Shown: one piece after another, positions 17,424 to 50,422 of the stretch
Layout: each line of letters opens with the position of its first letter
Numbering within the stretch: position 1 is the stretch's first letter
Assembly: GCA_965204735.1 (NCBI GenBank)
Contig: OZ242008.1
Location: forward strand, 3,744,001-3,808,000
DNA length: 64,000 bases
From: Longimicrobiales bacterium
GTDB taxonomy: Bacteria; Gemmatimonadota; Gemmatimonadetes; Longimicrobiales; Gaopeijiaceae
Direction: 5' to 3'
Made by a program: the position numbers and the translations under genes
Notes under the pieces: model-generated
Databases searched by the model: none
Seen by the model: the letters and a program-made list of their open reading frames with translations, nothing else
Told to the model about the DNA's origin: nothing

Positions 17424-17450
17424 ATACCCCGGTTTCCCGAAAGGTTCCCT
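17424..17450 (-). promoter_or_regulatory. Putative ECF sigma promoter AGGGAACC-N14-GGTAT
   Basis: AGGGAACCTTTCGGGAAACCGGGGTAT on the - strand, about 98 nt upstream of 17326; first 16 bp identical to the site before the ECF sigma gene. Confidence 0.6.
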
Positions 17451-17513
17451 CGGGTGCGCGCCGTCGTTCCTCCCGACCACGGCACCGCCCTGCCGAATGG
17501 GAGAGACGACGGA

Positions 17514-17543
17514 TTGACTACTACGGTTTTTGTTCGGTATCTT
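17514..17543 (+). promoter_or_regulatory. Sigma70-type promoter of imuA-imuB-dnaE2 (probably leaderless)
   Basis: TTGACT-N18-TATCTT ending 8 nt before ATG 17552; same hexamers as the tRNA promoter. Confidence 0.55.
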
Positions 17544-17551
17544 GCCAGGCC

Positions 17552-18295
17552 ATGCTTGCCCGATCCACATCTCCATCGGCGTCCGTGCCGGTGTCCGCGT
17601 CCGTGCCAGCGTCCGCGTCTCGGCGGCCCGTACCGGAGGCCCTTCGTCGCGCGCTCCATCGTCTGGAGAACGGGGGAGCGACCCGGCATCCGCCGTTGCC
17701 GCTGGGCATCCGCGAGATCGACGCGGCTCTTCCCGAAGGCGGGCTTCGGCGGGGGTGCGTCCACGAGGTGGGCGGCGACGAGGCCGCCACCGGCTTCTGC
17801 GCCGCCCTGCTGGCTCGGGCGGGCGCCGGTGGCGGGACGCTGCTGTGGCTGGCGCGAGGCTGGGACCTGTACCCGCCGGGCTTGGTCCGCTATGGGATCG
17901 CCCCGGGCCGGCTGGTGGTGGTCTCCGGGCTGGGCCGGCCGGACGACGTGGCGTGGGCGATGGAGGAGGTGCTGCGCAGCGGGGCGGCAAGAGGGGTCGT
18001 GGCGGAAAGCGGGTCGGTCGGAGTTGCGGCTTCGAGGCGCTTGATGCTTGCCGCCGAAGGGTCCGACGTGGTGGGGCTGGCGCTGACGGCTTCGTCGGCG
18101 AGGAGCGTGGCGGCGACAAGGCCGGGCGCGGGCGGAGCGGGCGTTCCGACGGCGGCCAGCCGCTGGCGGGTCACCGCGGTTCCAGGCGCCGGGGCGGCGA
18201 GATGGCGCATCGAGCTTCTCCGTTGCCGGGGAGGACGGTCGGCGGAGACGGTCGCGAGCTGGGGCGGCGACGGCTGGGGCGGTCGCGACCGATGA
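17552..18295 (+). CDS. imuA: ImuA family RecA-like mutagenesis protein
   Basis: IDAALPEGGLRRGCVHE, LYPPGL, WAMEEVLRS, SRRLMLAAE, WRIELLRCRGG; first gene of the cassette. Confidence 0.88.
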   Translation: MLARSTSPSASVPVSASVPASASRRPVPEALRRALHRLENGGATRHPPLPLGIREIDAALPEGGLRRGCVHEVGGDEAATGFCAALLARAGAGGGTLLWLARGWDLYPPGLVRYGIAPGRLVVVSGLGRPDDVAWAMEEVLRSGAARGVVAESGSVGVAASRRLMLAAEGSDVVGLALTASSARSVAATRPGAGGAGVPTAASRWRVTAVPGAGAARWRIELLRCRGGRSAETVASWGGDGWGGRDR

Positions 18296-20001
18296 GCGCC
18301 TGCACCGCCTCGCGCGTCTCGTCGCGACGCATCTTGGCGGCGTGGCTGCCCTGGTGGCCCACCGAGAGGCTGGCGCGACGGCTCCCGGAGGCGCGGGAGC
18401 GGTGCTTCGCCACCGTCACCGAAGCCAGGGGCAGGATGGTGGTCGGGGCGGTCAACCTCCGCGCCCGGCGGGCCGGGGTGGTCGGGGGAATGCCCCTGGC
18501 GGACGCCCGGGCCGTCGTTCCCGACTTGGTCGTCCGTCCCGCCGACCCAGCGGGCGACGCGAGCACGCTGGAGTCGCTGGCCCGATGGGCGGTTCGCTTC
18601 ACGCCCCGCGTCGCCGTTGCCGGGCCGGACGCCTTCTTTCTCGACATCGGCGGATGCGCTCACCTCTTCGACGGCGAGCGAGTGCTGGCGGAGTTGCTGC
18701 GGGAGGGGCTCGCCCGTCTCGGCCTGACTTCGCGGGCGGCGCTGGCCGACACGCCGGGGGCCGCCTGGGCCCTGGCCCGCTACGGCAAGGAGGAGCTTGC
18801 CGTGGCGCCCGCGGCCGCCGGGCCGGAGGGGATGAGGGACGTGCTGGCCGAGCTTCCCGTCGCCGCCCTGCGCCTGGACCCGGTTGTCGTCGAAGCCATG
18901 TCGTCCTTCGGCCTGGAGAAGATCCACGCACTGTTCGACCTGGAGTCCGTCGACCTGGGCCGCCGCTTCGGCTTCGACCTTCCCCGACGGATCGACCAAG
19001 CCATCGGCCTGCGGGAAGAGCCCATCGTCCCCCTTCGGCCCACTCTGCCCCGAGAGGTTCGCCGGGCCTTCGCCGAGCCGGTTGCCAGAGCGGAAGACGT
19101 CTGGGCGGCGACGGAGCAGCTTCTGGGCGACTTGTGCCAGCTGCTGCGAAGAACGGGGGAAGGCGCTCGACGGCTGCGGCTCGTCTGCTGCCGGGTGGAC
19201 GGGAGGCCCCAAAGCCTGGTCGTCGGGACCAGCCGCCCCACGCGGCGGCAGGATCGCCTCATGAACCTGTTCGCCGAGAAGCTGGGCGAAGTGGAGCCCG
19301 GCTTCGGGATCGAGGAGATGGCGCTCTCCGCAGAAGTGGCGGAGCCCGTCGGAGAGGGGCAGACCGACTGCTGGGCGGGCGGAGGCCTGCCGGACCGGGA
19401 AGGCGGCATGGGCGGCATGGGCGACCATGACGGCAAGCTCTCCGGCCTCTTGGACCGCCTGGGGAACCGCTTCGGCTTCGACCGAGTGACGCGACCGGCG
19501 CCCCGCAGCAGCTGGCTGCCCGAAAGGGCGGTCGGAAAGAGCGCGCTCCTCGTCTCGTCCACGGCGTCGCTGGCGGCAGCGGTCGCTGGATGGCCCAAGG
19601 GACGGTGGCGCAGCGGCAAAGACCGGCCGGTCGCTGGGCGAGGCGCCGCCGTCGCCGGCTGGCCCGAGGGACGGCGTCGTCCGCTTCGCCTCTTGTCGCC
19701 GCCGGAGCGGGTGGAGGTGCCCGCCGAGCCCGGTCCCGGCCGGCCCCCGGCCCGCTTCCGTCGCGGGGGACGGATGCACCGCACGCGGTTTGCCGAAGGT
19801 CCCGAGCGGATCGAGTGCGAGTGGTGGCGAGAAGCGGCTCCGTCCCGGGACTACTACTTGGTGGAAGACGAAAGCGGCCGGCGCTGGTGGCTGTTTCGAG
19901 AGGCGGCGCGGCCTGCGAGCGACGGCACGAGTCGGAACGACGCTCCCGGCGACCGCTCCGACGACGCGCCCCGCTGGTTCCTCCACGGAGTCTTCGCGTG
20001 A
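18292..20001 (+). CDS. imuB: ImuB, Y-family polymerase-like protein
   Basis: GMPLADARA, LDIGGCAHLFDGE, RRPLRLL, GPERIECEWW, RDYY, WFLHGVFA; ATGA coupling to imuA. Confidence 0.92.
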   Translation: MSACTASRVSSRRILAAWLPWWPTERLARRLPEARERCFATVTEARGRMVVGAVNLRARRAGVVGGMPLADARAVVPDLVVRPADPAGDASTLESLARWAVRFTPRVAVAGPDAFFLDIGGCAHLFDGERVLAELLREGLARLGLTSRAALADTPGAAWALARYGKEELAVAPAAAGPEGMRDVLAELPVAALRLDPVVVEAMSSFGLEKIHALFDLESVDLGRRFGFDLPRRIDQAIGLREEPIVPLRPTLPREVRRAFAEPVARAEDVWAATEQLLGDLCQLLRRTGEGARRLRLVCCRVDGRPQSLVVGTSRPTRRQDRLMNLFAEKLGEVEPGFGIEEMALSAEVAEPVGEGQTDCWAGGGLPDREGGMGGMGDHDGKLSGLLDRLGNRFGFDRVTRPAPRSSWLPERAVGKSALLVSSTASLAAAVAGWPKGRWRSGKDRPVAGRGAAVAGWPEGRRRPLRLLSPPERVEVPAEPGPGRPPARFRRGGRMHRTRFAEGPERIECEWWREAAPSRDYYLVEDESGRRWWLFREAARPASDGTSRNDAPGDRSDDAPRWFLHGVFA

Positions 20002-23000
20002 GCCTCGACGCCGGCGACGCACCCGACTTCGCCCCTGCCGCCACCGTCCCGGTCCCCCGCAGCTCTGCGTCCGTCGCCGACGCGTCGGTCCCCAAGGACT
20101 CTGCGCCTTCCGCCGCCGACCCGACCCCCGCCTACGCCGAGCTTCAAGTCACCAGCAACTTCTCCTTCTTGCGGGGAGCTTCCCACCCCGAGGAACTGAT
20201 CGAGCGGGCCTGCGCAATGGGCTTTCGGGCCGTCGCGCTGACGGACCGGAACACGCTGGCGGGGGTCGTCCGGGCCTACCACGCGGCCAAGCAGACGAAG
20301 GCCAAGGAAGCCGGACTTCGCTTCATCGCCGGCGCCCGCCTCGATCTGGAGGACGGGCCGAGCCTGCTCTGCCTGCCGACGACCCGAGCGGGCTACGGAC
20401 GGCTGGCCCGCCTGATCACCGACGGACGGCGACGGGCGCCCAAGGGGGAGTGCCGGCTGTGGCGGGCGGACGTGGTCTGCGCGGCCCGAGAACGCCGAAC
20501 GGCCCAGGAAAGCACCGGGAACCGACAGGAGTGCGAGGAGGCCGGAAACCGACAGAAGTGCGAGGCCGCCGGAAGTCGAACGGAAAGCGGTGAACGCTGG
20601 CCAGCCCCCGACCAAGTCTTCGTTGTCGTGCCGCCGGAGGAGCCCGGTCCCGACTTCCCCGAGCAGCTCGCTTGGTACCGAGAACGGCTGGACGCGCCGC
20701 TCTACCTGGCCGCGACCCACTACCGCCGGGGCGACGACGACCGCCGCCTGGCCCGCCTCGCCGCCCTTGCCGACGCGCAAGGCGTCCCCCTCGTCGCCAC
20801 CGGAGACGTGGAGATGCACGACCCTGCGCGCCGTCGCCTTCACGACGTGCTGGCCTGCGTCCGGGAGCGCTGCACGATCGACGCGGCAGGCCGACGGCTG
20901 GCGCCCAACGCGGACCGCCACCTCAAGACGCCGGCGGAGATGACGCGGCTCTTCCGCAACCACCCGCAGGCGCTGGCCAACGCCGTGGAGATCGCCGAGC
21001 GCTGCCGCTTCTCGTTGGGCGAGCTTCGCTACGAGTACCCCGACGAAGTGTCCGACGACGGTCGTCCGCCGCAGGAAAAGCTGGAGGCGCTGGCGTGGGA
21101 AGGGGCGGCCCGCCGCTGGCCGGACGGCGTTCCTTCCAAGGTCCGCGCCGCCGTCGAGCAGGAGCTGGCGCTCATCGGCCGGCTGGGGTACGCGCCCTAC
21201 TTCTTGACCGTGGACGACATCGTCCGCACGGCCCGCGGCTTGGGCATCCTCTGCCAGGGACGGGGGTCGGCGGCGAACTCGGCGGTGTGCTACTGCCTGG
21301 GCATCACCTCCGTCGACCCCACCCGCATCGACTTGCTCTTCGAGCGCTTCATCTCGGCGGAGCGGGACGAGCCGCCCGACATCGACGTGGACTTCGAGCA
21401 CGAGCGGCGTGAAGAAGTCGTCCAGTACATCTACCGGAAGTACGGACGGGAACGGGCGGGGCTGACGGCGACGGTGATCACCTACCGGACCCGCAGCGCG
21501 CTTCGGGACGTGGGCAAGGCGATGGGGCTGAGCAAGGACGTGATCGACCGCCTCCTCTCCCAGACGTCGAGCTGGTCCGGGCCGGTGGACGAAGCGAGGG
21601 CCAAGGAGGAGGGACTCGACCCGTCGGAACACCGGCTCGCCCTGACGCTGGCGCTCGCCGACGAGTTGCGCGGATTTCCCCGCCACCTGTCCCAGCACAC
21701 GGGGGGCTTCGTCGTTTCGCGGGGACCGCTGTGCGAGATCGTGCCGATCCAGAACGCCGCCATGGCGGACCGCACGGTGATCGAGTGGAACAAGGACGAC
21801 CTGGAAGCGCTGGGCCTCGTCAAGGTCGACGTGCTGGGCCTGGGAATGCTGTCGTGCATACGCCGCTCCTTCGAGCTGCTGGAGGCGCATCACGGCGTCC
21901 GCCACACGCTGGCCAGCGTTCCGCAAGAAGACCCGGCGGTGTACGAGATGATCCAGCGCGCCGACACGGTGGGCGTCTTTCAGATCGAAAGCCGCGCCCA
22001 GATGGCGATGCTGCCCCGCTTGAAGCCGGCGACCTTCTACGACTTGGTGATCGAAATCGCGATCGTGCGCCCTGGGCCGATCCAGGGCGACATGGTGCAT
22101 CCGTACCTGCGCAGACGCAAAGGCGTGGAGCCGGTGCGCTACCCTTCCGACGAGCTGCGCCAAGTGCTGGAGAAGACCTTGGGCGTTCCGCTCTTTCAGG
22201 AACAGGCGATGAAGGTGGCGATCGTCGCGGCGGGCTTCGCTCCGGCGGAGGCCGACCAGCTGCGGCGGGCGATGGCCAGCTTCCGCAACTACGGGACGGT
22301 GCACCGCTTCAGGGACAAGTTCGTGGAAGGGATGACCGGCCGAGGGTACGACCAAGCCTTCGCCGAGCGCTGCTTCCGGCAGATCGAAGGCTTCGGCGAC
22401 TACGGATTCCCCGAAAGCCACGCGGCCAGCTTTGCGCTCTTGGCCTACGTCTCGTCGTGGCTGAAGCGCCACTACCCGGAAGTCTTTGCATGCGCGCTGC
22501 TGAACAGCCAGCCCATGGGCTTCTACGCCCCGGCCCAGATCGTGCGCGACGCCCGCGACCACGGCGTGGAGGTGCGCCCCGCCGACGTCAACCACTCGGC
22601 GTGGGAGTGCGTCCTGGAGCCGATGGAACCGGCGGCACCGGCGGAGTCGGCGGAGTCGAGGACCGGCGAGCAGGCCGGCAACCGTCGTCGCGGGCCGGGT
22701 CGCCCCTTCGCGCTGCGTCTGGGGCTGCGGCAGATCAAGGGGCTGCGGAAGGAAGAGGCGACGTTGGTGGCGGCGGCGCGGGGAGACGGCTACTGGTCGC
22801 CGGAGGAGTTGTGGCGACGGTCGGGGGTTTCCCGAGGCACGCTCGTGCGCTTGGCCAACGCCGACGCCCTCGTCTCGATGGGAATGGACCGTCGGCAGGC
22901 CGCGTGGGCCGCAGGAGACGTGCAAAGGGAAGGCTCGTTGCCGCTCTTCGACTCGGCTCGACCGGAAGCCCGCCCGGACCAGCGGCCCCGGCCGAGTCGA

Positions 23001-23561
23001 CAGTCCCGGCCAAGCCGGCGAGCCGACTACGGCCGGCAGCCCCGGCCCGTCCAGCTCGAACCGGCACTGCCCGCCATGTCGGCGGGAGAGCACGTGGCGG
23101 CCGACTACCGGGCGACGGGCCTCTCCCTCAAGCGCCACCCGGTCGCGTTTCTGCGGGAACGCCTGGCGCGACGGGGGGTGCGTCCGACGGAAGAGTTGGC
23201 CCAGCTGCCGAACGGGGCGCGGGTCGCGGTGGCGGGGATCGTGCTTGTGCGCCAGCGCCCCGGGACTGCCCGCGAGGTGGTGTTCGTCACGCTGGAAGAC
23301 GAGACGGGGACGGCCAACTTGGTCGTCTTCCCGTCCGTGCGGGAGCGGTGGCGCCGCGACTTGCTGACCGCGCGGCTGATGGTCTGTCGCGGCAAGGTGC
23401 AGGCCGAGGACGGCGTGATCCACGTGATCGCGGAGAAGATCGAGGCCCTGAACGGGTGGCTGGAAAACGTGGGGCGGGCGGAGGGAGACAGCGGCGGCAA
23501 GGGCTGCGACGGCGCCGCCGGAAGGAGCGCCTTTGTGGAGAGAGGGCGGTTCTTTCACTGA
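19998..23561 (+). CDS. dnaE2: Error-prone DNA polymerase DnaE2 (ImuC)
   Basis: SNFSFLRGASHPEEL, CQGRGSAANS, PDIDVDFEH, YGFPESHAASF, RQRPGTA, C-terminal RFFH. Confidence 0.96.
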   Translation: MSLDAGDAPDFAPAATVPVPRSSASVADASVPKDSAPSAADPTPAYAELQVTSNFSFLRGASHPEELIERACAMGFRAVALTDRNTLAGVVRAYHAAKQTKAKEAGLRFIAGARLDLEDGPSLLCLPTTRAGYGRLARLITDGRRRAPKGECRLWRADVVCAARERRTAQESTGNRQECEEAGNRQKCEAAGSRTESGERWPAPDQVFVVVPPEEPGPDFPEQLAWYRERLDAPLYLAATHYRRGDDDRRLARLAALADAQGVPLVATGDVEMHDPARRRLHDVLACVRERCTIDAAGRRLAPNADRHLKTPAEMTRLFRNHPQALANAVEIAERCRFSLGELRYEYPDEVSDDGRPPQEKLEALAWEGAARRWPDGVPSKVRAAVEQELALIGRLGYAPYFLTVDDIVRTARGLGILCQGRGSAANSAVCYCLGITSVDPTRIDLLFERFISAERDEPPDIDVDFEHERREEVVQYIYRKYGRERAGLTATVITYRTRSALRDVGKAMGLSKDVIDRLLSQTSSWSGPVDEARAKEEGLDPSEHRLALTLALADELRGFPRHLSQHTGGFVVSRGPLCEIVPIQNAAMADRTVIEWNKDDLEALGLVKVDVLGLGMLSCIRRSFELLEAHHGVRHTLASVPQEDPAVYEMIQRADTVGVFQIESRAQMAMLPRLKPATFYDLVIEIAIVRPGPIQGDMVHPYLRRRKGVEPVRYPSDELRQVLEKTLGVPLFQEQAMKVAIVAAGFAPAEADQLRRAMASFRNYGTVHRFRDKFVEGMTGRGYDQAFAERCFRQIEGFGDYGFPESHAASFALLAYVSSWLKRHYPEVFACALLNSQPMGFYAPAQIVRDARDHGVEVRPADVNHSAWECVLEPMEPAAPAESAESRTGEQAGNRRRGPGRPFALRLGLRQIKGLRKEEATLVAAARGDGYWSPEELWRRSGVSRGTLVRLANADALVSMGMDRRQAAWAAGDVQREGSLPLFDSARPEARPDQRPRPSRQSRPSRRADYGRQPRPVQLEPALPAMSAGEHVAADYRATGLSLKRHPVAFLRERLARRGVRPTEELAQLPNGARVAVAGIVLVRQRPGTAREVVFVTLEDETGTANLVVFPSVRERWRRDLLTARLMVCRGKVQAEDGVIHVIAEKIEALNGWLENVGRAEGDSGGKGCDGAAGRSAFVERGRFFH
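20514..20594 (+). repeat. Three degenerate 27-bp in-frame tandem units inside dnaE2
   Basis: ACCGGGAACCGACAGGAGTGCGAGGAG / GCCGGAAACCGACAGAAGTGCGAGGCC / GCCGGAAGTCGAACGGAAAGCGGTGAA. Confidence 0.75.
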
Positions 23562-23578
23562 AGCGGTTAGATTTGGAG

Positions 23579-25399: not shown

Positions 25400-25705
25400 T
25401 CACTCCGGCAGTCGGCGCGCCGGCAGAGGCGGAACCGGATGGACGCCCAGGACGACGTGCCAGTAGACCCACGAACGCGCATCGAATATCCCTGGATGCG
25501 CCAGCCGAAGCACCTCGCGCAGGTGGTCGTCGGAGAAGTGGTCGCGGGTTGCCGCCACGTCGGCGACCGTGCCGAAGGTCATGACGTGACAAAGAAGGAG
25601 CACGGGGTCGCGCAAGCTCTCTTCCGGCTCCTTGAACCACACCATGCGCTTCGCGACGCGCAGGAGTTCTTGCGTGACCCGCAATGGGAAGCTTGGAGGC
25701 GTCAC
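25400..25705 (-). CDS. Small partner (putative antitoxin) of the AbiEii-like nucleotidyltransferase
   Basis: About 100 aa, VWFKEP...GIFDARSWVYWH; GTGA overlap with the upstream gene stop (alternative ATG 25714). Confidence 0.65.
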   Translation of the reverse strand: MTPPSFPLRVTQELLRVAKRMVWFKEPEESLRDPVLLLCHVMTFGTVADVAATRDHFSDDHLREVLRLAHPGIFDARSWVYWHVVLGVHPVPPLPARRLPE

Positions 25706-26400
25706 CGGTCGCATCCTTGCGGGACGAGGCCCGTTCGCGGAGACGCGGCTTGGGGTCGCCTCGGGGGCCTCGGGGTTGCGCCCTTCACGGCCGCGGCCAG
25801 GCGTCGGCGGACGTCTTCGGGCACCGTCGCCAAGTCGCCGTCGCCGAAGTAGACCAGGGCCTTCAGGGTCGGGAGCGGGTTGAAGGCGGGGCCGTGAACC
25901 GCTCCGGCGGCTGCCAGTGCTTCCTCCAACGACACGCCTCCCTGGGCGATCGCGGCGTCCAGGTCGATGTAGTCCTTGACGCTGGCGCGTCTCTGCACCA
26001 GCTCCGCCTTGGCGGCCGCGAGGTCGATCAGGGAAGCCACCTTGACGCCGGCGCCCTTGGCGATCTGGGGGTCGTTCGCCCGGTCGAGGCGGAGTCCGCC
26101 GAAGTACGAGACGCGGACCAGCCCGTTGCGGTCCAGCAAGCAGGTCAGGGTGTCGGCGGCTTGCCGCAGGACTTCCGCGCCGCAGAGGTACGGGACACGG
26201 GCCCGCAGGTGGACGGGGTCGAACGGCTCGGCCGAGAAGAAGTCGAAGTCCTCGGACGTTCGGTGGCCCAGTCGAAGCGCCAGGGCCGTGCCGCCGTAGA
26301 GGACGAACTCCGCCGGGGTTTGCCCGAGTTCGCCCCACAGGCGGCGCTGGGGCGGCGGGAGCGTCTCGAGCCGGGGGACGAACTCTAGCAGGTCAGGCAA
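25702..26400 (-). CDS. AbiEii/AbiGii-family nucleotidyltransferase toxin
   Basis: FVLYGGTALALRLGHRTSEDFDFFS and KDYIDL motifs; TTG start inferred, overlapping the ankyrin gene end. Confidence 0.85.
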   Translation of the reverse strand: MPDLLEFVPRLETLPPPQRRLWGELGQTPAEFVLYGGTALALRLGHRTSEDFDFFSAEPFDPVHLRARVPYLCGAEVLRQAADTLTCLLDRNGLVRVSYFGGLRLDRANDPQIAKGAGVKVASLIDLAAAKAELVQRRASVKDYIDLDAAIAQGGVSLEEALAAAGAVHGPAFNPLPTLKALVYFGDGDLATVPEDVRRRLAAAVKGATPRPPRRPQAASPRTGLVPQGCDR

Positions 26401-28406: not shown

Positions 28407-28467
28407 CCGCGCGCCCCGCGACCAGCCCCTTCGGGTCCTCCGGCGTTCCTTCGCCACTTCGCGCGCC

Positions 28468-29880: not shown

Positions 29881-29919
29881 CGTCCTCGGAACCTCCTGGG
29901 TTTTCGCGTGGGGGAAGCG

Positions 29920-32541: not shown

Positions 32542-33669
32542 CTAGCGAACGATCCGGCGCACCTGAACGACTTCCTCGTCAAGCTCCGTCTCGACCACGA
32601 CGACGGCCAGGGTGTCGCTGCCCCCGAGCAGGTGCGCGTCCCCGTCGATGGAGGCGGTGGCTCGCACGCTGCCGCGGGACGGATCGATCACGACCCACTC
32701 CGTGTCCCCGGTCTCATCTCCGTCCCCGAATTTCTGAAGCCACACGTCGCCTCCGACATGCACCAAGCGCCGAACTGGCGGGGCCGCTGCGGGCAGCTCG
32801 CCAGGCAAGTTGTCGAAGACCAGGCGAATCCTGCTGGCGGCGGGGCCGCTGGCGACCGAAAGCCACTCCTCCCTGCGTTCCTGCAGGAACTCCCGCCGAT
32901 AGCGCTCGAGGCGCCAGGGCAACGACACGACGGAAGTCGTCGCGCCCGCCGCATCCGCCAGACCTCCCAGCAAGAGGACCGGATCGTCGATGGGAACCAA
33001 AAGCCAACGGGAACGGGTCGCGGAAACGTGCGCTTTGCCCAGGAAGCTCATGTCGTAGCCCGTTGCCCCGTTCTCCTGCTGGACGAGGTAGCTGTACCCG
33101 ACATGTCGGCGATCCAGCTTGGTCAGATGTCGGGTGTCGACGTCGAACGCCAAGATGTCCTGCCACACTGCGCGCAGCGACGTTGGATCGGTGAAGCCCG
33201 TTCCGCCCCAGGTGGACAGAACCCAGGTCTTGGCCGACGCGACGCCGGCCAGGGTCGTCCCGACGTCGCCGGGCTTCGGCAAGGCCGCGACCTCGGGCTC
33301 GGCTTCGCCCACCCAAGTCGTGACTCGGTTGAGGAAGGAATCGAATGCCAACACGGTGTCGCCCAGGGAGAACACTCGCCCGATCCCGATGAACTCGCCC
33401 GGACCGTTGCCTTTTCTGCCCCTCGACTCGACGACGTCCCCGGTTGCGGAAACCCGGAGGATGCGGGGCTCCGAGTTGTCGGCGATCCAGAGGCTGCCGT
33501 CGGGCGCGAAGGAGGCGTCTCGGACGTTGTGGAGCCACACGCCGTCGTCCCTTCCCGTCTCGAAGACCGGGCCGTCCGCCAAGCGCCACTGGGCGGCGGT
33601 CGCCGCGCTGGCCTGACCTGCTGCCAAGTGCACGGCAACCGCCGCCGCGACGAACAGCTTGCTCCGCAT
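32542..33669 (-). CDS. Secreted beta-propeller (6-bladed-like) protein
   Basis: Signal peptide; GRKGNGPGEF blade motif; beta-rich. Confidence 0.75.
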   Translation of the reverse strand: MRSKLFVAAAVAVHLAAGQASAATAAQWRLADGPVFETGRDDGVWLHNVRDASFAPDGSLWIADNSEPRILRVSATGDVVESRGRKGNGPGEFIGIGRVFSLGDTVLAFDSFLNRVTTWVGEAEPEVAALPKPGDVGTTLAGVASAKTWVLSTWGGTGFTDPTSLRAVWQDILAFDVDTRHLTKLDRRHVGYSYLVQQENGATGYDMSFLGKAHVSATRSRWLLVPIDDPVLLLGGLADAAGATTSVVSLPWRLERYRREFLQERREEWLSVASGPAASRIRLVFDNLPGELPAAAPPVRRLVHVGGDVWLQKFGDGDETGDTEWVVIDPSRGSVRATASIDGDAHLLGGSDTLAVVVVETELDEEVVQVRRIVR

Positions 33670-33696: not shown

Positions 33697-34335
33697 CTAG
33701 GCTGGCGCGTTACAGTAGCACTTGGGTCCCGTCCAGCCGCAACTGCAGCATGCCATGGCTCCGTTGGAGCAGCCGACCGAGCACCCGCGGTCGCCACAGT
33801 CCACCGAGCACTTGTCGGCCCATTGGCCGCCGCTGTCGCAACTGCCGCTCGACGAGGCGCTGGACACCCCCAGCGTCGAATACCATTCTAGCGTAGGCCT
33901 CTCCGGGATGTCCACGCGCCATGCCATGTTGCTCAAGCCGTACCCGAGAATATCCCGGGAGTTCGGAACCCCTGCTTGTTCTTCTAGGGCGAGCGTCATC
34001 TCCTCCGAAGCGGTCTTGATCTCGACGGCTCCGCGCCGCCACTCCACGCTAGCGCCGTCCAGACGCCAGCTGCTGAACTGGCCGGGGTTCTTTTCGGTCG
34101 TCTGGAGCCTGAAGACACGGTCGGCTTGGCCGTTCGTGATGCCCGTTTCGTTCGCCAGGTCGAGGAACGCGAGGTAGTCGGTCCCGGCGCCGTCGTCTGT
34201 GGACGCCGCGATCACGACGACATCTCCCTCTGCGGATCCAGTGGGGGATTCCGGCGGGCAGGTGCGAGACGTCGACGGTCCCAGGAACGCTGTCGTGCCG
34301 GCGACGAGCCATGCGAGGTACTTCGTCCCGATCAT
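33697..34335 (-). CDS. Secreted protein with 10-Cys C-terminal domain
   Basis: GGAGA RBS; hydrophobic N-terminus; tail CDSGGQWADKCSVDCGDRGCSVGCSNGAMACCSCGWTGPKCYC. Confidence 0.72.
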   Translation of the reverse strand: MIGTKYLAWLVAGTTAFLGPSTSRTCPPESPTGSAEGDVVVIAASTDDGAGTDYLAFLDLANETGITNGQADRVFRLQTTEKNPGQFSSWRLDGASVEWRRGAVEIKTASEEMTLALEEQAGVPNSRDILGYGLSNMAWRVDIPERPTLEWYSTLGVSSASSSGSCDSGGQWADKCSVDCGDRGCSVGCSNGAMACCSCGWTGPKCYCNAPA

Positions 34336-34395: not shown

Positions 34396-34423
34396 ATACC
34401 CGCGATCGACGGCTTGGTTCCCT
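34396..34423 (-). promoter_or_regulatory. Putative ECF sigma promoter AGGGAACC-N15-GGTAT
   Basis: AGGGAACCAAGCCGTCGATCGCGGGTAT on the - strand, 60 nt upstream of ATG 34335. Confidence 0.55.
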
Positions 34424-39277: not shown

Positions 39278-41887
39278 TCAGTCGCGCAGCGCGGGATCCG
39301 GAATTCGGGCGATCACCAGCCGCGTCTGGGGCGGCAGCTCCACCCGGAACACGGCGGCGGCCCCTGCGGCTTCGGCTCGGAAGTCGTGGACCCTGAGACC
39401 GCTCTCGCCCATGTGGCCCCGAAACGTCGCCGATTGAGCCAAGGGCGCCGCCAGCACGGCGGAGTCGTCGTCTTCGCCGTTCGTAGTCACGGGCCAGGGA
39501 TAAATGCCCGGGGGATCGGGGTACGAAAGAAAGATCTCGGTCGCCGTCGGGAAGTCGACGGTGGTGAATCGCGGGGTGTCGTCGCTCGTCAGCGACGCCT
39601 CCGCCCCTGCCACGGTCATCGCCACGGCATGCGCCGCAAGTATCTCCGAGATCGGTTCTCCCACGACCCTCTCGATGCCCGCCGCGCCGGAGTGCGCCAT
39701 GGAGTCGTTCAAGGCCGTCACGAACGCTTGGTCGTCGGCGAACGACGATCCGGCGCCGGCGAACCAATCCCGCAGGAAGCGGTGGAAGTGCCAGCCGCTT
39801 CCGTACACGTGACCGTCGTCCCATGGCTCGAAGGTGACGGCGTTGGGGTCCGCCGAGAACGCCAACACGGTCTGGGCCATCAATTCGAAGATGCCGAAAT
39901 GCTCCGCATACGCTTCCTCCCGACCCGTCCGGAACATCTCTCCAGTGAGTCGGGCGTCGGCCGGCGGTCCGCCCACGCTCTCCCAAGCCAGCCGCGAACT
40001 CATTTCCGTGGCGATCTCGGCGGTCCCTTCCTCTACCCAGACCGGGTGCCAAACCGGTTCGACTCGTGTCCGATACCAGCTCCTCATCCGCTTGTAAAAC
40101 GAACTCACGTGCTTGACCTCGTGCACCATGCCCGCAAGCGCCCAGTACCCGCCGTCGTCGAACTGAGCGAAGGCCCCAGCGCTCATGTGCACGAGCTCCA
40201 TCTCGTTGGACGCTGCGCAATCGGCCTGGGACTTGAGCATGTCGTTGGAAATGACGTAGGCCAGGACGCCGTCCAGGAGCGGATCGACGACGACCACCAC
40301 TCTCCCGTCGCCGTTCACGTCGCTGACGCCGCCGAACCAGCGCTCGATCACTTCGGCGCCGTGGTCGGCGTAGTAGTCGAGGATGCGGTTGACGTTGGCG
40401 ACGGAAACGGGATCGGCGGCGGCCTCGTCCTCGTAGACCGCCAAGTGTTCGTTCTCGGCGACCAGCCTGGCCGACACTGTCCGGTCCACTTCGCAGCGGT
40501 TCCAGTCCCACCCGCCTTCCCCTAGGACCTGGGCCAATCGGAAGGTGCGCCGCTCCGGACTGCTCTGGTTCAGGACTCGCTTTGCGGAGGCCGGTCGAGC
40601 CGCCCACCGCCCCGCCGGCCCTCGGTCCAGCACCTCCTTCAACCGACCTTCGGCGGCCAGCTGCCGGTACATCTCCGCCTCCCACCGCCGAATGCTGCGG
40701 GAAAGGGCGTCGTTGGCACGCTGGATCTCCAGCAGCTCTTGCCACTCGGGCGAGAGGACGGGCGGACGGACGCGCACCCGCCGGGCCGCCTGACGCGGAC
40801 CCTCTCCCGCCGACACCGCCTCCACCGCAAGTTCGACGGGCAGAACTCTGCCTTCCCCCGGCGACACTCCGGCTACGGCGACCCGATAGTACGCACCGGC
40901 TTCCGGGGCCCGGACGAACAAGCCGCAGGGCTCCGTTTCGCTTCCAGTCTTCAGCTGCACGTCGCCCGTCTCCAACCCGAGGGGGCCGTCGCACACCCTC
41001 AACGAAAGAGCCTGAGACGCGGAGGCGCCCTCCGAATCCGCGACCCGCACCTCGAACTCGGAGACCCCGGTCTCGGTGGGAACGCCGACGATCTCGCCGT
41101 CCGCTTCCAGCGCCAGTCCCCGGGGCAGGCGTGCTCCCTCGGCCAAGCTCCAGGCGTAGCCCTCTTGGCTCCCGCCAACCGCGACCAGCGTTTGGGCGTA
41201 CGAGACGGTGAGGCGGCCCTGCTTCAAGGAGTCGGTGACGACGGCCAGGCGACGGGGCGCGGCCGTGGCCCGAAAGGTCGTGGCAAAGCCGCCGGCCGAG
41301 GCAGAAAGAGCCTGCGCCGAGTCGGCGCCCAGGGTCCACTTGGTTCGGGCAAGGCCGTCGGCGCCCGTGAGGGCGGAGCTGGGCGACACCGAGCCGCCCC
41401 CGGCAGCGACCTCGAACTCGACGGCAACGTCTCTCGCCGGGTGTCCGTTGGCGTCCGAGACCAAGACCGAGGGGGAAACCGACAGCGCCTCTCCCGCGAA
41501 GCCATGCTGTTCGTCGCCCTCGGCCTTCTCGATCGCGCCCGCGACCTGGTGCACGGTGGCGGTGGCCCTGCCGGCGATTGATCCGGCCCGGGCGCTGATC
41601 AGGGCGGTTCCCGCCCCTGCCGCGGTGGCCAGCCCGGTTGCCGGGTCGACCGCGACGACGCTCGGGGCGGCGCTGACCCACGCGACCGGCGTCCCGGTCA
41701 GCACGTTTCCGTTCTGGTCGGCGACCCGGGCTGTGAACTGCACGGTCTCGTCGATCGCCGTCAGGGTCGCCTCGGCGGGCGAAACGACAATGGTGGCGGG
41801 AACGGGGGGCGGCGTGGGCGCGCCGTCGCCGCAAGCGGCAGAGACCAGCACCGGCGCAAGCCAAGCGGCCCAACGGTGGTTCTTCAT
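39278..41887 (-). CDS. Lipoprotein with Ig-like domains and HExxH metallopeptidase domain
   Basis: GGAGG RBS; VSAAC lipobox; Big_2/He_PIG-like repeats; HEVKH...WVEEGTAE. Confidence 0.8.
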   Translation of the reverse strand: MKNHRWAAWLAPVLVSAACGDGAPTPPPVPATIVVSPAEATLTAIDETVQFTARVADQNGNVLTGTPVAWVSAAPSVVAVDPATGLATAAGAGTALISARAGSIAGRATATVHQVAGAIEKAEGDEQHGFAGEALSVSPSVLVSDANGHPARDVAVEFEVAAGGGSVSPSSALTGADGLARTKWTLGADSAQALSASAGGFATTFRATAAPRRLAVVTDSLKQGRLTVSYAQTLVAVGGSQEGYAWSLAEGARLPRGLALEADGEIVGVPTETGVSEFEVRVADSEGASASQALSLRVCDGPLGLETGDVQLKTGSETEPCGLFVRAPEAGAYYRVAVAGVSPGEGRVLPVELAVEAVSAGEGPRQAARRVRVRPPVLSPEWQELLEIQRANDALSRSIRRWEAEMYRQLAAEGRLKEVLDRGPAGRWAARPASAKRVLNQSSPERRTFRLAQVLGEGGWDWNRCEVDRTVSARLVAENEHLAVYEDEAAADPVSVANVNRILDYYADHGAEVIERWFGGVSDVNGDGRVVVVVDPLLDGVLAYVISNDMLKSQADCAASNEMELVHMSAGAFAQFDDGGYWALAGMVHEVKHVSSFYKRMRSWYRTRVEPVWHPVWVEEGTAEIATEMSSRLAWESVGGPPADARLTGEMFRTGREEAYAEHFGIFELMAQTVLAFSADPNAVTFEPWDDGHVYGSGWHFHRFLRDWFAGAGSSFADDQAFVTALNDSMAHSGAAGIERVVGEPISEILAAHAVAMTVAGAEASLTSDDTPRFTTVDFPTATEIFLSYPDPPGIYPWPVTTNGEDDDSAVLAAPLAQSATFRGHMGESGLRVHDFRAEAAGAAAVFRVELPPQTRLVIARIPDPALRD

Positions 41888-42124
41888 GGACTCCTCCGTG
41901 CTCGCGAGGGTCATAGTCTCGGCTCGCGAGCGCCACAGTCGATCCCAGACCTTGAGCCGGCCCGGGGCACCTCAACCCAGAGACAGGATAGCCAACTTGA
42001 GCCGCTTCCGCCAACTTCCGGGAGTTCCGCTGGTGCAATTCGGTGGAGAACTGGACTTCCATCGACTTCCTCCGTAGCTTCGGCCAGAAGCAGCACCAAC
42101 CCTCCTCTGGACCGATCGAACACA

Positions 42125-43297
42125 GTGATCCAAGACAAGTATCGACGAGTGGAAGTAGGTGCCGACGGGAGACCCGGTGAATCCCTAGACCACGCCATTG
42201 CCGTACTCAATGGTCACTTTGACCCAGAGGACTTCTTCGTCACGCGAGCCGACAACGCGCTGCACGTATGGCTGCGACAGGTAGACATCGCGGCCTTGGA
42301 CAATGTCGTCCAGTCCGTTCTGGCCATACATGCCGACGCTGATCCCTTGCCAAGGATTGTTTCTGCGGTTCATGACATCGGAACCTACGGACTCAATGGC
42401 AAGAAGCGTCTATATGTAGGGTACAATCGCGAACGCAAGGTCGTGGGTCGCAAAGCAAAGGAGGGTCGTCGTGGAAAACACTACTACGCGCACGCAGACG
42501 ATTTCAGCAACCAGAATAGCCATCTTCCTGTCGGCATCGCAGACTCGATTATGTGCGGCGACAGTGAAGTGCTGCTGAAAGGATTGCCGGACAACTGCGT
42601 CGACCTTGTTTTTACCTCGCCTCCATACAATTTTGGTCTAGGGTACTCCGACGCTAGCGTCGAGGATGGGGATGCTGTCGACTGGGAATCGTATTTTGAC
42701 AAATTGTTTGCGGTATTGGACGAGTGCGTGCGCGTGCTCAAATTCGGAGGCCGCCTCGTGATAAATGTCCAGCCGTTGTTTTCTGACTACATCCCAAGTC
42801 ACCATATCATATCCGGTCACTTGATGAAGAGAAAAATGATATGGAAGGGAGAAATCCTGTGGGAGAAGAACAACTACAACTGCAAGTACACGGCCTGGGG
42901 CAGTTGGAAGAGCCCGTCCAGCCCGTACTTGAAGTACACATGGGAATTTGTTGAAGTCTTCTGCAAGGGCGACCTCAGGAAGACCGGACGGTCGGAGGAT
43001 GCGGACATTGACGCCGATTCCTTTAAGGATTGGGTCGTAGCCAAGTGGTCCATTGCCCCGGAGCGCCGAATGAGAGAGTATGGTCACCCGGCTATGTTTC
43101 CTGAAGAATTGGCGCGCAGAGTGCTGTTGCTGTTCAGTTTTCGCGGCGACACGATCCTGGACCCGTTTTGCGGCGTGGGAACTACGTGCGTTGCGGCTCG
43201 AAGGAGTGGCCGAAGATTCGTGGGCATGGATGTGTCGGACACCTATTGCATGACGGCGACAAAGAGATTGTCAGACGTGCCAATGTCGCTCTTGTAG
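42125..43297 (+). CDS. Beta-class N4-cytosine/N6-adenine DNA methyltransferase
   Basis: TSPPY precedes HPAMFP and DPFCGVGTT; low GC; GTG start inferred. Confidence 0.92.
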   Translation: MIQDKYRRVEVGADGRPGESLDHAIAVLNGHFDPEDFFVTRADNALHVWLRQVDIAALDNVVQSVLAIHADADPLPRIVSAVHDIGTYGLNGKKRLYVGYNRERKVVGRKAKEGRRGKHYYAHADDFSNQNSHLPVGIADSIMCGDSEVLLKGLPDNCVDLVFTSPPYNFGLGYSDASVEDGDAVDWESYFDKLFAVLDECVRVLKFGGRLVINVQPLFSDYIPSHHIISGHLMKRKMIWKGEILWEKNNYNCKYTAWGSWKSPSSPYLKYTWEFVEVFCKGDLRKTGRSEDADIDADSFKDWVVAKWSIAPERRMREYGHPAMFPEELARRVLLLFSFRGDTILDPFCGVGTTCVAARRSGRRFVGMDVSDTYCMTATKRLSDVPMSLL

Positions 43298-43298
43298 C

Positions 43299-44012
43299 AT
43301 GAGGGAAAAGCCACTGACTCGTGCAGACTTGATCGCCCTGTACGACAAGGTAGTGGGCAACATCGACGCCGAGGCGTCCGACGGTAACGAGAGGACGTAT
43401 GGTGGAGTAGTTCGCGCCGGCAAAGGGAAGTTGGTTGAAACGATGGCTGAGCATATTGTAATGCTGGCATGGCACGACGTTGGCGGACTGGCACAACGCT
43501 TGTCTTTCCACGATGTCAAGAAGTATCAGATCCATGTCTCGGACGATTATGTCGAAACGTTGTCGCCGGAAATCGCGCGGCATATAGGTATCAGCAAGAA
43601 CCAGCACAGCTATGGGGCGCACGTTGACAAACATGTATTTGTGGATGGCAGGATCGTATTGGGTGTTGAATGCAAGGCGTATACCGAAAACGCTATGCTC
43701 AAGCGAATTCTTGTGGACTTTCGTCTTCTCAAGTCACTGCATCCAAGGCTACATTGTTGCCTTCTTCAGCTGGAAAGCATGCTTGGCGGAGACTATGCGT
43801 ACCCATTGGCGTCGTTTCGATTTGGAAGTCCCAGTTCTCACGTCCTGATGTCTTTCTTCCCAGAGGTGAAGTTGAACATTGTTACGTTGTTGGAGGGCGA
43901 GCGAAACGTAAAGAAGCCAATCCACGACAGTAGATTCTTCAAGCCGCTGAAACCAGCGTCTCTAGATCGCGCCATCGAACAATTTGGCACGCTACTGGAA
44001 CCGTGGGTATAA
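43299..44012 (+). CDS. Putative type II restriction endonuclease (PD-(D/E)xK)
   Basis: VDKHVF...VECKAY motif; starts 1 nt after the MTase stop; low GC. Confidence 0.75.
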   Translation: MREKPLTRADLIALYDKVVGNIDAEASDGNERTYGGVVRAGKGKLVETMAEHIVMLAWHDVGGLAQRLSFHDVKKYQIHVSDDYVETLSPEIARHIGISKNQHSYGAHVDKHVFVDGRIVLGVECKAYTENAMLKRILVDFRLLKSLHPRLHCCLLQLESMLGGDYAYPLASFRFGSPSSHVLMSFFPEVKLNIVTLLEGERNVKKPIHDSRFFKPLKPASLDRAIEQFGTLLEPWV

Positions 44013-44198
44013 GATGGGCATCTCTCGCTGCTTCAAGTGGGAAGCCATCAAGCTTTCCGCAGATGAGTTCCACCACCCATCCCAGCACGCTGTCCCTCAC
44101 TCAAGGGACTTCCGCACCGGCGACGGCGGGTTGCGAGACCGAGTCGGTTGCGGAAGCTAGCCCGGGGGCCGCTCAGGTCGTCGGCGTCGGGCGGGCGG

Positions 44199-44565
44199 CT
44201 ACTTCTTGTCGTCGGCTCCGGCGGCGTTAGCGGCCCGTTCGAAGGCGGCTTGTCGGCGGTAGCTCTCGCCTTCAATGGTGAGGTTGTGGGCGTGGTGGAC
44301 GAGACGATCGACGGCGGCGATTCGTCATGTGGCCTTGTCGGCGAAGATGCGGTCCCCAGGTGCTGAACGGCTGGTTGGTGGTGACCATGAGCGAACGGTA
44401 GCACCTGCCGACGAACTCGAAGGGCACGCCGGTCTCGTTGCGTTCCTTGTCGACGTAGGCGATGTCGCTCGACCGCGTGACCCGCACCCCGCGTCTCGCG
44501 GCACTTCTGCTCCCGCTCGCGTGGCAGCGGTCGCAGTGCCTTGCCTTCCTTCTCGACCCGCTCCG
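44199..44565 (-). pseudogene. IS21 relic: istA fragment joined to a frameshifted istB C-terminus
   Basis: ERVEKEGKALRPLP and DIAYVDKERNET match the adjacent IS21; also TNQPFSTW, AAVDRLVHHA, IEGESYRR. Confidence 0.8.
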
Positions 44566-44809
44566 CGCTCGCCCCGGCCCCGCTGACGGGAGGGCTTGTA
44601 GAGCGACAATCAGGATAAGACCCCGGCGACAATCAGGATGAGACGTCCAGGATCGTGACAGGAACGATGGCAGCGGAGGTGGAACGGGTCAAGACGAGGG
44701 GGTTGGGCATGGGGCAAGCGAGGCCGCGGAGCAGGCGCCCATCCGGCCCAAGCGCTTGATCGCGGAGAGTTGGCCGGTCTTGTCGGAATTCGAGGCCGCT
44801 GCTGGCCGT

Positions 44810-45463
44810 CTAACGCGAGATCTCGAACGGACGCGACCTGGGATACCCCTGAATTCGGGTTGTTTCATAGCGCGTGCCGACGAGCTCGAAGAGCGCGCTG
44901 GTCTCGTTGCGGTCCTTGTCGACGTAGGCGATGTCGTCGAGGATGACGAGGTGGAACTTGTGAAGCCGCCGGATCGCCGCTTCGAGGGCCAGGTCGCGGC
45001 GCGCCGCCTGGAGCTTCTGCACCAAGTCGGTGGCTCGGGCGTAGAGGACGCGGTAGCCGCGCTCGACGAGGGCGAGGCCGATCCCGGCGGCGAGATGGCT
45101 CTTGCCGGTGCCGGGCGGGCCGAGGACGACGATGTTGTGGCCGTCGTCGATCCAGTCGCCTCCCTTGGCGAGGACGCGGACGAGCGGTTCGGACAGTCCG
45201 GGCAGGCGGTCGAAGTCGAAGTTGTCGAGCGTCTTGCCGAGCGGCAGCTTGGCCTCGGCGCGGTGGCGCTCGAAGCGTCGGCGCGCCCGGTCGGCGAGTT
45301 CCTGCTCGGCCAGCTGTGCGAGGTACCGGTCGTGGGACCAGCCTTCGCGCTGTGCCCGGTCGGCGAACGGTCGCCACATGTCCTTCATGGTGGGCATGCG
45401 CAGTTCCTTGAGCATGCGGTCCACCTCGGCGTCGTCCACGACGAAGGGCTGCTTGGGGCTCAT
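44810..45463 (-). pseudogene. istB: IS21 helper ATPase IstB, C-terminally truncated
   Basis: GPPGTGKSHLA and LVILDD; similarity ends after LFELVGTRYE. Confidence 0.85.
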
Positions 45464-46830
45464 CGAGCGTCTCCTTCCGGATGGCGGGCGGCCCCGTCGG
45501 GGGCCGGTCCTTCGGCGGGGCCGTCGCCGTTGCGGGCGCCGAAGAGGCCGTCGTAGCGGTCCAGCGAACCTTCGCGCACGGCAGGCACGATGTCGAGGAC
45601 GCCGGGCTCGGGCTCGGCGAACTCGGTTGCGAGCGCCTTCGGGTCGGGGATGCCGCCGGCGTCGAGAACGTCGTCGATGCGCTCGGCCAGCGCTCGCTCG
45701 CAGCCCTGTTCGTGGGCGAGCGCGAGCAGGGCGACGGCGACGCGGCACGCCCTGCGGTCGCCGTGCTTGGCCACGACCTCGTCGTAGGCTCTGCGGTAGG
45801 CGTCCGCGGGGGAAGAGCTGGTCGCAGCACCTTGCAGCACCCAGTCCTTCAACGCCATCGTCTTGCGCTGGAGCGACCGGATCACGTGGCGGTAGTCGAC
45901 GCCGCGCGGCAGCGGCCGCAGCGCCTTGCCTTCCTTCTCGACCCGCTCCGTGCTCCGGCGGGCGTTGCGGCGAGCGACCACGCCGGCCACGAAGGCGCGG
46001 TACGCCTCGACCGACTCGAACTCGCGCGAGCCCTTCAGCATCAGCGCGTCGACGAGCACCCGCTTGAAGTGGCCGTGGCTGCTCTCGACCACGCCGTTCT
46101 CGTGTGCCCGGCCCCGGTTGTTGCGCGTCGGCGTCATCCGGTAGTGGGCGCACAGCGCCTCGTAGCGCCTGGTCTGGTCCTCCGCCGCTTCCTGCGACAG
46201 GTTCCTGAACGCCGCCGACAGGCTGTCCGTCCGATGCTCTGCCGGCGCCCCGCCCAGCGTCCACAGCGCCTCCTGCAGCCCCTCGGCCAGCGCCGTCCAA
46301 CTCTCGCCGCCCAGCACGACGCGAGCGTGCTCGAAGCCCGAGTACGGCAGCCGGAAGCGGTACAGCATGTGCCGCAGCGGCTCGCCGGCGACCGTCACCC
46401 CCAGCTTCGCCATGGCGGTGAAGTCCGAGTAGCCCCGACGACCCGGACGGTGCTTCTGCACGAACACCACCTCCCGCTCCGGACCGTGCAGCGCCTTCCA
46501 CTCCCGCACCCGCCGCTCGACCGTCCGCCGCGTGCTCGCCGGCAGCTCGGGATGCAGCCTGCGCAGCTCCTCGAAGACCGCCACCGCCCGCAGCTTCGGG
46601 TTCCGCTCGAGCAGTGGCGCCGCCACCCGCTCGAACAACCCGCCCAGCGGGTCCGGCCGCCTGCTCCCGCGCGGCTTCCGCTTCTCCGACGGCAAGCGAC
46701 GGTCCGCCTCCAGCCTGTACCCCGTCGCCCTGCTGAACCCCGCCTTCGCCGCCGTCTCGACGGCAAGCCCGTCCTTCCGGTGCCTCATGTACTGCCTCGC
46801 CTGGCCATCGTTCACGTGCAGGTCCGCCAT
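45460..46830 (-). CDS. istA: IS21 transposase IstA, with probable internal deletion and compensating frameshifts
   Basis: RRPDPL, SDFT, HRTDSLSAA, HENGVVESSHG; jumps from LRPLPRG directly to VDYRHVI. Confidence 0.85.
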   Translation of the reverse strand: MADLHVNDGQARQYMRHRKDGLAVETAAKAGFSRATGYRLEADRRLPSEKRKPRGSRRPDPLGGLFERVAAPLLERNPKLRAVAVFEELRRLHPELPASTRRTVERRVREWKALHGPEREVVFVQKHRPGRRGYSDFTAMAKLGVTVAGEPLRHMLYRFRLPYSGFEHARVVLGGESWTALAEGLQEALWTLGGAPAEHRTDSLSAAFRNLSQEAAEDQTRRYEALCAHYRMTPTRNNRGRAHENGVVESSHGHFKRVLVDALMLKGSREFESVEAYRAFVAGVVARRNARRSTERVEKEGKALRPLPRGVDYRHVIRSLQRKTMALKDWVLQGAATSSSPADAYRRAYDEVVAKHGDRRACRVAVALLALAHEQGCERALAERIDDVLDAGGIPDPKALATEFAEPEPGVLDIVPAVREGSLDRYDGLFGARNGDGPAEGPAPDGAARHPEGDAR

Positions 46831-47094
46831 CAGCGCTCCTCCTCGTTGGGGAAGGCACTGATGTAGTTGGACCTCGTTCCACGATCACCGACGGCCGGCC
46901 TCCGAACGACAGGACCGAACCCGCGTCCGAATCCCTCGACCTCAGATCACGGCCGCCTCCGGCAGTCTCATCTTGGTTGTCGCTACCGTCTCATCTTGGT
47001 TGTCGCTCGACAGGTTGATCATGGGGCCAGAGCGGCCGGGTCTCGAGACGCCGTAGCCCTTCGGGGTCCCCAACCCGGTACCCTCGGCGGCGGA

Positions 47095-47122
47095 AGGGAA
47101 CCTTTCGGGATCCACTTGGTAT
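47095..47122 (+). promoter_or_regulatory. Putative ECF sigma promoter AGGGAACC-N15-GGTAT (autoregulatory, possibly leaderless)
   Basis: AGGGAACCTTTCGGGATCCACTTGGTAT ends 8 nt before ATG 47131. Confidence 0.62.
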
Positions 47123-50415: not shown

Positions 50416-50422
50416 CGCGCAC

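Follow-up and report, generated by a model that had tools for sequence, protein, structure and literature searches.

An order-wide ECF sigma factor as the likely reader of a promoter motif before an accessory ECF gene and secreted-protein operons in a Longimicrobiales genome

The question raised by this locus is which sigma factor reads a promoter-like repeat standing before three dispersed transcription units in a 64,000-nucleotide stretch of a Longimicrobiales chromosome (the window; C1:3744001-3808000 of the source genome G000, which has 4.14 Mb and 69% GC). The repeat, AGGGAACC-N14/15-GGTAT, has three matches in the window, at 17450-17424 (-), 34423-34396 (-) and 47095-47122 (+), which lie before a lipoprotein operon, a cysteine-rich secreted protein and a gene for a sigma factor of the extracytoplasmic function (ECF) type, respectively. 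In the original prediction, this window ECF was considered to read the repeat and to co-control the secreted modules. In our study, the motif has been followed through the source genome, the other three genus members compared (G001, G002 and G003) and the wider order. A core Longimicrobiales ECF encoded at C1:3909010-3909666, about 118 kb away outside the window, likely uses the motif as its promoter, and its targets likely include the two secreted-protein operons and the window ECF, which would then not be the master switch. The ECF promoter motif is real, and its first assignment to the window sigma probably mistaken.

A pattern search has confirmed the three matches at the coordinates given above, all outside coding sequence and each oriented to the next gene; the 16 identical bases shared by two of the sites and the 8 nt between GGTAT and the ATG of the ECF gene at 47131 were verified as well. 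No match was obtained in 100 dinucleotide shuffles, a flattering control as the pattern was derived from these very sites. The sites are real; a fourth exact copy is present elsewhere in the genome and the actual motif is shorter and more widely spread than first described, namely GGAAC-N17/18-GTA. In this form, GGAAC-N17-GTA occupies 47097..47121 (+) before the accessory ECF, with 9 nt from GTA to ATG, and 34397..34421 (-) before the Cys-rich secreted protein. The third site (17425..17448, -) is GGAAC-N16-GTA, whose off-consensus 16-nt spacer is 1 nt shorter than in the homologous N17 promoters of the paralogous lipoprotein-TonB-DUF4249 operons; N16 occurs in 0/75 of the sigma/anti-sigma intergenic regions considered below. 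The 9-nt GTA-to-ATG spacing is found at the window ECF, at its G002 ortholog and at 3/3 other genome sites with an ATG 7-10 nt off, a recurrence which fits leaderless starts, and a leaderless transcript is predicted from the GTA placed 9 nt before the ATG at 47131. No structured-RNA match was given by an Rfam scan at the sites, and a sigma70 scan of window 46900-51900 returned matches at no more than chance level. An origin of the 47097 promoter in an insertion sequence (IS) was rejected, as the site lies outside the IS21-family element (44597..47012, -; istA, istB and terminal repeats), which ends 83 nt before it, and is retained in G002 without the IS.

The genome-wide scan has borne out the claim that the motif is of the ECF promoter type, and it is enriched before genes. 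When 768 combinations of spacer and trimer were compared in non-coding DNA upstream of genes, GGAAC-N17-GTA ranked first; an upstream sense-strand GGAAC is accompanied by GTA at N17 in 21/495 cases, whereas other spacers average 3.3 and the antisense strand gives 1/313, so that the bipartite boxes, fixed spacing and upstream sense-strand enrichment of an ECF-dependent promoter are all present. Of 1534 genes with an upstream space of 60 nt or more, 27 are preceded by GGAAC-N17/18-GTA, where about 3 would be expected by chance per spacer length; gene calls were made with our own hexamer model, by which some genes are missed, for example those at window 47745 and 48715. A hydrophobic N-terminus is seen in 15/27 motif genes versus 376/1507 others (P 0.001) and a lipobox in 7/27 versus 82/1507 (P 0.0006), both by crude rules and inflated by paralogs: nine of the 27 fall in three paralog groups and 2 more are distant homologs. 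The proposed control of secreted modules has thus held in that motif genes lean to secreted proteins and lipoproteins, and failed in naming the window sigma as controller. Across non-homologous genes and across species the spacer drifts, and both boxes and their spacing are conserved.

Named orthologs of one core gene of the source genome belong to Longimicrobiales, Gemmatimonadota. The core ECF was found in 41/41 genomes, and its recognition helix LGTVKSRLNRAR is identical in 80/80 orthologs. Between the core sigma and the adjacent zinc-finger anti-sigma gene, GGAAC-N17/18-GTA is present in 74/75 loci holding both genes (the remaining one has GTT), with GGAAC kept in 75/75, which is the conservation expected of a cognate promoter. 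In two further locus sets the motif lies downstream of the core sigma in 19/26 and 25/26; the 80-locus set and these two 26-locus sets overlap partly, and the genomes are kin. Conservation in related genomes, suggested earlier as a check, has therefore placed the motif order-wide before the core anti-sigma gene, and the reservation made earlier, of a different ECF as reader, is likely the answer. Upstream of the core sigma itself the motif occurs in 0/80 loci (shuffle mean 0.5). There, a sigma54-type TGGC-N8-TGC is found in 50/78 loci versus 2 on the other strand, including 4/4 genus members, and rpoN is present in the genome; a stricter sigma54 pattern was found in 1/80 and 0/78 loci. The motif also precedes a core GT2-DUF3108 gene in 14/30 orthologs from 3 families, G001 included, and one core target carries GAAAC in place of GGAAC in G001. 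The PD40/peptidase gene C1:2394921 was considered as an order-wide target and rejected: all 4 genus members have the motif before it (GAAAC in one of them), but GGAAC-N17/18-GTA is seen in only 1/26 others, and the gene is therefore a genus-level target.

The amino acid residues involved in promoter recognition, given in RpoE numbering, are in line with this assignment. The core sigma has Lys171, Ser172, Asn84 and a SigW-type loop, a set compatible with the motif. In published swaps, Lys171 prefers C(-31) with 0.98 and Ser172 prefers G(-34) with 0.83, and the values for Ala171 with C and Val172 with G are 0.15 and 0.17 (PMC7776599 Dataset S3). The window ECF (47131..47748, +; 205 residues) has a divergent recognition helix with Ala171, Val172, Leu173 and Arg175, and is incompatible with the motif at residues 171, 172 and 175; Arg175 is said to require T(-32) (PMC7776599) and conflicts with the A held by the motif at this position. 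Its Glu84 is uninformative (CA 0.35, CG 0.33, with large errors in the PMC7776599 data). Region 2 of the core sigma has its best matches in SigW and an RpoE/SigW-loop chimera, and region 4 matches RpoE. RpoE binds GGAACTT and the loop determines the -10 base (PMC8103513), and SigW reads CGTA (PMC5758882). An RpoE-type region 4 with a SigW-type loop would therefore predict GGAAC...GTA, as extrapolated from other scaffolds.

A mechanism may be proposed in which the core sigma, lacking a self-promoter upstream, is turned on by sigma54. It would then transcribe the gene of its own zinc-finger anti-sigma, a membrane-anchored protein giving negative feedback, and the GT2-DUF3108 gene. These two steps, although read from sequence, are well supported by conservation. 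The later steps are weaker: in this genus the feedback would have decayed, the anti-sigma promoter changing from GTA to GTT or being lost and the anchor being lost thereafter, which would uncouple the sigma from envelope signals; T-tract promoters would then have been acquired by duplicated or island surface-protein operons and by one ECF-receiver-AraC subclade, giving a two-tier cascade. The chain would thus run from sigma54 to a core ECF and on to surface genes and second-tier ECFs, with a lineage-specific loss of the anti-sigma anchor. In its widest form the proposal is tentative and rather doubtful: that, through three different anti-sigma truncations, an order-wide, sigma54-driven envelope ECF lost the link to its membrane sensor on several occasions within one genus and became the master switch of newly gained islands of surface proteins, the undescribed ECF-pseudo-receiver-AraC regulators, whether split or fused, forming a second tier under it.

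The anti-sigma of the source genome (C1:3909905-3910219, 104 residues) has HLASCPSC, which matches the HxxxCxxC zinc motif of zinc-binding anti-sigma (ZAS) class I, and gives weak NCBIfam anti-sigma matches below cut-off; its top hydropathy is 0.32, and a membrane helix with a periplasmic tail is missing. The G001 protein has 245 residues with a membrane helix, the G000 form being short by an in-frame loss of about 435 bp, and the G003 and G002 forms have 85 and 94 residues from the match start, with different ends and no helix. The membrane anchor is therefore lost in 3/4 genus genomes. Among complete anti-sigma orthologs, a helix is found in 70/71 and none is below 130 residues, and a separate 26-locus set has a helix in 26/26, one with an early stop beyond it. 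The anti-sigma promoter has GTT in G000, G001 and G003; in G002 none was found. An assembly error behind the short protein is unlikely, as a contig of another study spans the region without differences; one further contig covers it in pieces only, and two matches may be the source itself. T-tract sites of the form GGAACYTT-N14/15-GTA occur 15, 16 and 13 times in the genomes with a truncated anti-sigma, versus 3 times in G001, 1-4 times in four genomes from other genera whose anti-sigma is intact, and 5 times in the genome with the early stop. In G003, about 2.9 kb with an ABC-transporter-like open reading frame (ORF) separates the core sigma from the truncated anti-sigma (L194 and L222). A locus of another genus (L330, G167) combines a GTT promoter with an anti-sigma early stop after the helix, and this genome has its 5 T-tract sites versus 0 in the control.

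Several observations weigh against the core sigma as reader and against its release from control. The anti-sigma promoter of this very genome reads GTT, not GTA, and the accessory sites carry a T-tract and, two positions ahead of GTA, a G, features which are rare among order-wide sites. The swap data are normalised preferences on other ECF scaffolds. A motif before 7/7 genes of the window-sigma subclade is also expected under autoregulation. The link between truncation and site expansion rests on 4 related genomes with a T-tract pattern picked after the sites were known, and G001, the untruncated member, is smaller and 92% complete. A broader pattern, with counts over control of 33/15, 15/8, 20/16 and 34/20 for G000-G003, blurs the link, as does another pattern with 35/20, 25/24 and 12/15 for G002, G003 and G001. 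In RskA, an N-terminal fragment can inhibit and some truncations activate (PMC7509140); the soluble N-terminus here may still inhibit, and the effect of truncation could therefore be inhibitory or activating. Finally, T-tracts can broaden the range of sigmas reading a promoter (PMC5758882). This last point also favours a shared reading, in which the core sigma defines the motif and the T-tract copies are read as well by the core ECF of SigW type or by accessory ECFs whose helix is near-canonical, bringing in several inputs. The retention of Arg171 with Ser/Thr172 in some subclade members and the GAAAC seen at one core target in G001 would agree with it, but the SigW-like class GAAAC-N17-CGTA forms a separate enrichment peak (9 versus 1.2) and the anti-sigma motif never departs from GGAAC, and shared reading is accordingly considered unlikely.

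The reading in which the window ECF, or its subclade, recognises the motif, controls its own gene and switches on the secreted modules has an association in its favour. In a tree of 69 sigmas from the four genus genomes (quick mode, as for the family tree, with 2 short rows dropped), the motif lies upstream of 7/7 window-sigma subclade members, where own-gene control shared by close orthologs would place it, and of 0/7 in sister subclades. Strict GGAACC-N14-GDGTA sites, counted with a shifted-pattern control, are commonest in the three subclade-bearing genomes (23, 19 and 8, versus 5 in G001 and 0-6 in 37 others), and autoregulation is common among ECFs (PMC8103513). However, the motif is also carried by 3/8 members of an unrelated accessory clade and by C1:69617, helix positions 171-176 vary in every subclade member while GGAAC is invariant, and the motif predates the subclade. 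It is not restricted to lineages with the window sigma, being order-wide, nor is it kept by the wider family: the accessory ECFs outside the genus have it at 0/6 loci, including the G066 sister sequence with a receiver-AraC partner and the G008 fused form, and the closest outside relative of the window sigma is without it. In G001 the motif is present, and no match to the receiver-AraC query was obtained, with only 10 sigmas above cut-off in this smaller, 92% complete genome. As the strict pattern occurs together with the accessory family, this model was favoured at first; it was dropped in view of the motif at the core GT2 and anti-sigma loci and the 0/6 outside the genus. The claimed autoregulation thus keeps the upstream position of the motif, and is contradicted by the residues and the lineage distribution; the window ECF as reader is very improbable. 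It is harder still to believe that many of the copies, above all the 16-nt-spacer site at 17450, are disused relics of operon duplication. The paralogy among motif genes, the chance expectation given above and two damaged target ECFs, one frameshifted and another a remnant, can be cited for decay, but the conservation of boxes and spacing despite spacer drift, across non-homologous genes and species, and the recurring 9-nt distance to ATG speak against it. The core sigma therefore remains the likely reader.

Frameshifted and remnant ECF genes are found at several places. At C1:3441419-3442040 (L040), a window-subclade paralog has a frameshift between regions 2 and 4 and an intact promoter. Two more ECF remnants lie at C1:159720-160060 and C1:3349021-3349513, the first of which retains an upstream GGAAC-N17-GTA.

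In the RpoE system, rseA has an internal promoter, and a promoter before the anti-sigma gene serves as feedback, as proposed here. Among relatives of solved structure, RpoE/AlgU (ECF02) with RseA/MucA come closest to the core sigma (E 4e-28) and share the GGAAC -35 box and T-tract (PMC8103513, PMC5758882), whereas the core sigma differs in the -10 GTA with a SigW-type loop, the zinc-finger anti-sigma and the missing self-promoter. Its scores of 129/236 bits (TIGR02939) and 109/243 bits (TIGR02948) are below the family cut-offs, and it is therefore not an equivalog of RpoE or SigW. With SigW/RsiW of Bacillus subtilis it shares a near-identical loop L3, a -10 ending in GTA and an HxxxCxxC anti-sigma with one membrane helix; unlike that system, its -35 is GGAAC and not TGAAAC, there is no fixed C before GTA, and the genome has a separate, closer SigW-like pair arranged alike, in which a distinct motif, GAAAC-N17-CGTA, precedes the anti-sigma. 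ECF25 (SigG/SapG), whose s4 holds Gemmatimonadetes, is similar in the GGAAC -35 and a single-pass zinc-binding anti-sigma at +1, but its -10 is GTC for s1 and s2, and no s4 motif is described in the available portion of PMC7826278. The predicted GGAACC / CGGTGTA of ECF204 is nearly that of the accessory sites of this genus, though the group is described as exclusively actinobacterial (PMC7826278); both groups were compared by description only. HrpL (ECF32) is, as proposed for the core sigma, sigma54-driven and not autoregulated, has a GGAAC -35 and drives secreted-protein genes, but its -10 is CCAC (PMC7826278), whereas the core sigma has an adjacent anti-sigma gene and no type III system is involved. 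In SigK/RskA, natural anti-sigma mutations and truncations alter regulon expression (PMC7509140); that pair belongs to another family, and truncation here could act in either direction. A literature search, largely outside subscription papers, turned up no publication describing a regulon from this phylum.

These outcomes provide a testable sigma-promoter pair, with upstream control and a feedback gene; the sigma concerned occurs throughout an order that is almost uncultured. If anti-sigma decay drives the expansion, this would be a natural case in which a stress sigma was re-purposed for the expression of surface genes gained horizontally and by duplication. Our study also advises caution, as a motif preceding an ECF gene is not necessarily that ECF's own.

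Among the other sigma loci, C1:2525733 (L036) and 12 other non-coding GAAAC-N18-GTA sites belong to the TGAAAC-N17-CGTA class, which lies between the SigW-like sigma (C1:2525107) and its anti-sigma, and are likely a second small regulon. The core ECFs C1:18792 and C1:2724707, with RpoE-type loops, have a conserved upstream (C/G)(A/C)AAC-N17-CGTC in G000, G001 and G002 (the second also in G003) and are likely autoregulatory. The TIGR02937 search also returned three short RpoD-like sigmas (about 270-300 residues) at C1:149370, 185574 and 1891298, and the G002 ortholog of C1:185574 has the motif upstream. Very large ORFs of 13027, 4496 and 3638 residues by our own gene calls, probably surface proteins, occur at C1:20786 onward, C1:2593033-2606523 and the C1:2888894 region; the 4496-residue one has a GAAAC-N18-GTA site upstream.

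The canonical phosphorylation site of a receiver domain comprises an acidic pair, Asp, Thr/Ser and Lys. The partner of the window ECF, a protein of 316 residues (47745..48695, +) whose start overlaps the ECF stop, has a receiver fold (predicted local distance difference test score, pLDDT, 94.8) matching DivK with Z 14.3 and a root-mean-square deviation of 2.5 over 117 aligned residues, tied with many receivers. Its site is incomplete: Asp71 is kept, there are no acidic residues after strand 1, and Arg-Pro stands for Lys-Pro. The modelled structure, a receiver domain plus AraC helices, therefore indicates that this AraC-like partner is an atypical receiver-AraC protein. The ECF and AraC labels were upheld by Pfam region 2 and region 4 matches and by an HTH_18 (helix-turn-helix) match, respectively, and the gene annotation agrees with the claimed coupling to an AraC-like gene and lack of an adjacent anti-sigma. 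G000 has 18 sigma genes above the TIGR02937 cut-off and 5 ECF + AraC-like loci including that of the window. The two proteins form a single gene at the paralog C1:222230 and in three related clusters, as they do in 9/9 tested matches of 454-525 residues, all of which have region 2 and HTH_18, and 8/9 region 4. A model of the fused protein (predicted template modelling score, pTM, 0.56 from a 13-row alignment) resolves the domains and not their packing, and was not used further. The PhyR layout joins a sigma-type domain to a receiver domain, unlike the window module with its full ECF, atypical receiver and AraC DNA-binding domain, split or fused. C-terminal extensions of ECFs are a known regulatory mode (PMC7826278). 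In the main text and the examined part of the supplement of this 2021 ECF classification, the term 'AraC' is absent and the ECF-receiver-AraC architecture was not found.

The ECF module lies in an island context marked by a methyltransferase and a putative endonuclease of low GC (41876..44012, +; 53%), and in G002 it occupies a different chromosomal place. Downstream are a putative lipoprotein of 566 residues with an HEYGH zincin-type motif and no Pfam or NCBIfam family (48715..50415, +), and an ORF of 198 residues (50402..50998, +) which also lies downstream of the orthologous module in G002. One might guess that the AraC part or the window sigma tunes the adjacent lipoprotein genes.

The first of the two likely target operons comprises a lipoprotein of 382 residues (16178..17326, -; 4 genomic copies, with unnamed clusters as Atlas look-alikes), a TonB-dependent receptor (13841..16165, -; one of several paralogs) and a DUF4249 lipoprotein (13029..13838, -; 7 copies). 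The second contains a 212-residue protein with a hydrophobic N-terminus and a Cys-rich C-terminus (33697..34335, -), for which no family was found and an Atlas search gave no usable match, and a secreted protein of 375 residues from an expanded family, possibly a beta-propeller (32542..33669, -). The TonB receptor and DUF4249 labels were substantiated by TonB plug and DUF4249 Pfam matches, and the Cys-rich C-terminus is visible; the beta-propeller label is weakly supported, by an NHL-type match (E 2.6e-4) far below cut-off, with no Pfam match.

Elsewhere in the window, an imuA-imuB-dnaE2 mutagenesis cassette (17696-23561, +) is divergent from the lipoprotein operon, and a sigma70-like TTGACT...TATCTT lies near 17513-17542. 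An AbiEii-type nucleotidyltransferase and a small neighbour at 25400-26400 (-) may form a type IV toxin-antitoxin pair. A cluster of ankyrin-repeat, DUF1552 and DUF1592/cytochrome-c (PSD) genes lies at 26385-32406 (-). An 878-residue Ig-domain lipoprotein with an HEVKH motif (39278-41914, -) has one full-length paralog. A tRNA is located at 9658-9731 (-), a DDE_Tnp_1_4 transposase at 11225-12601 (+), and a urease operon at 295-5413 (-), with an Rfam 5_ureB_sRNA match at 4257-4554 (+).

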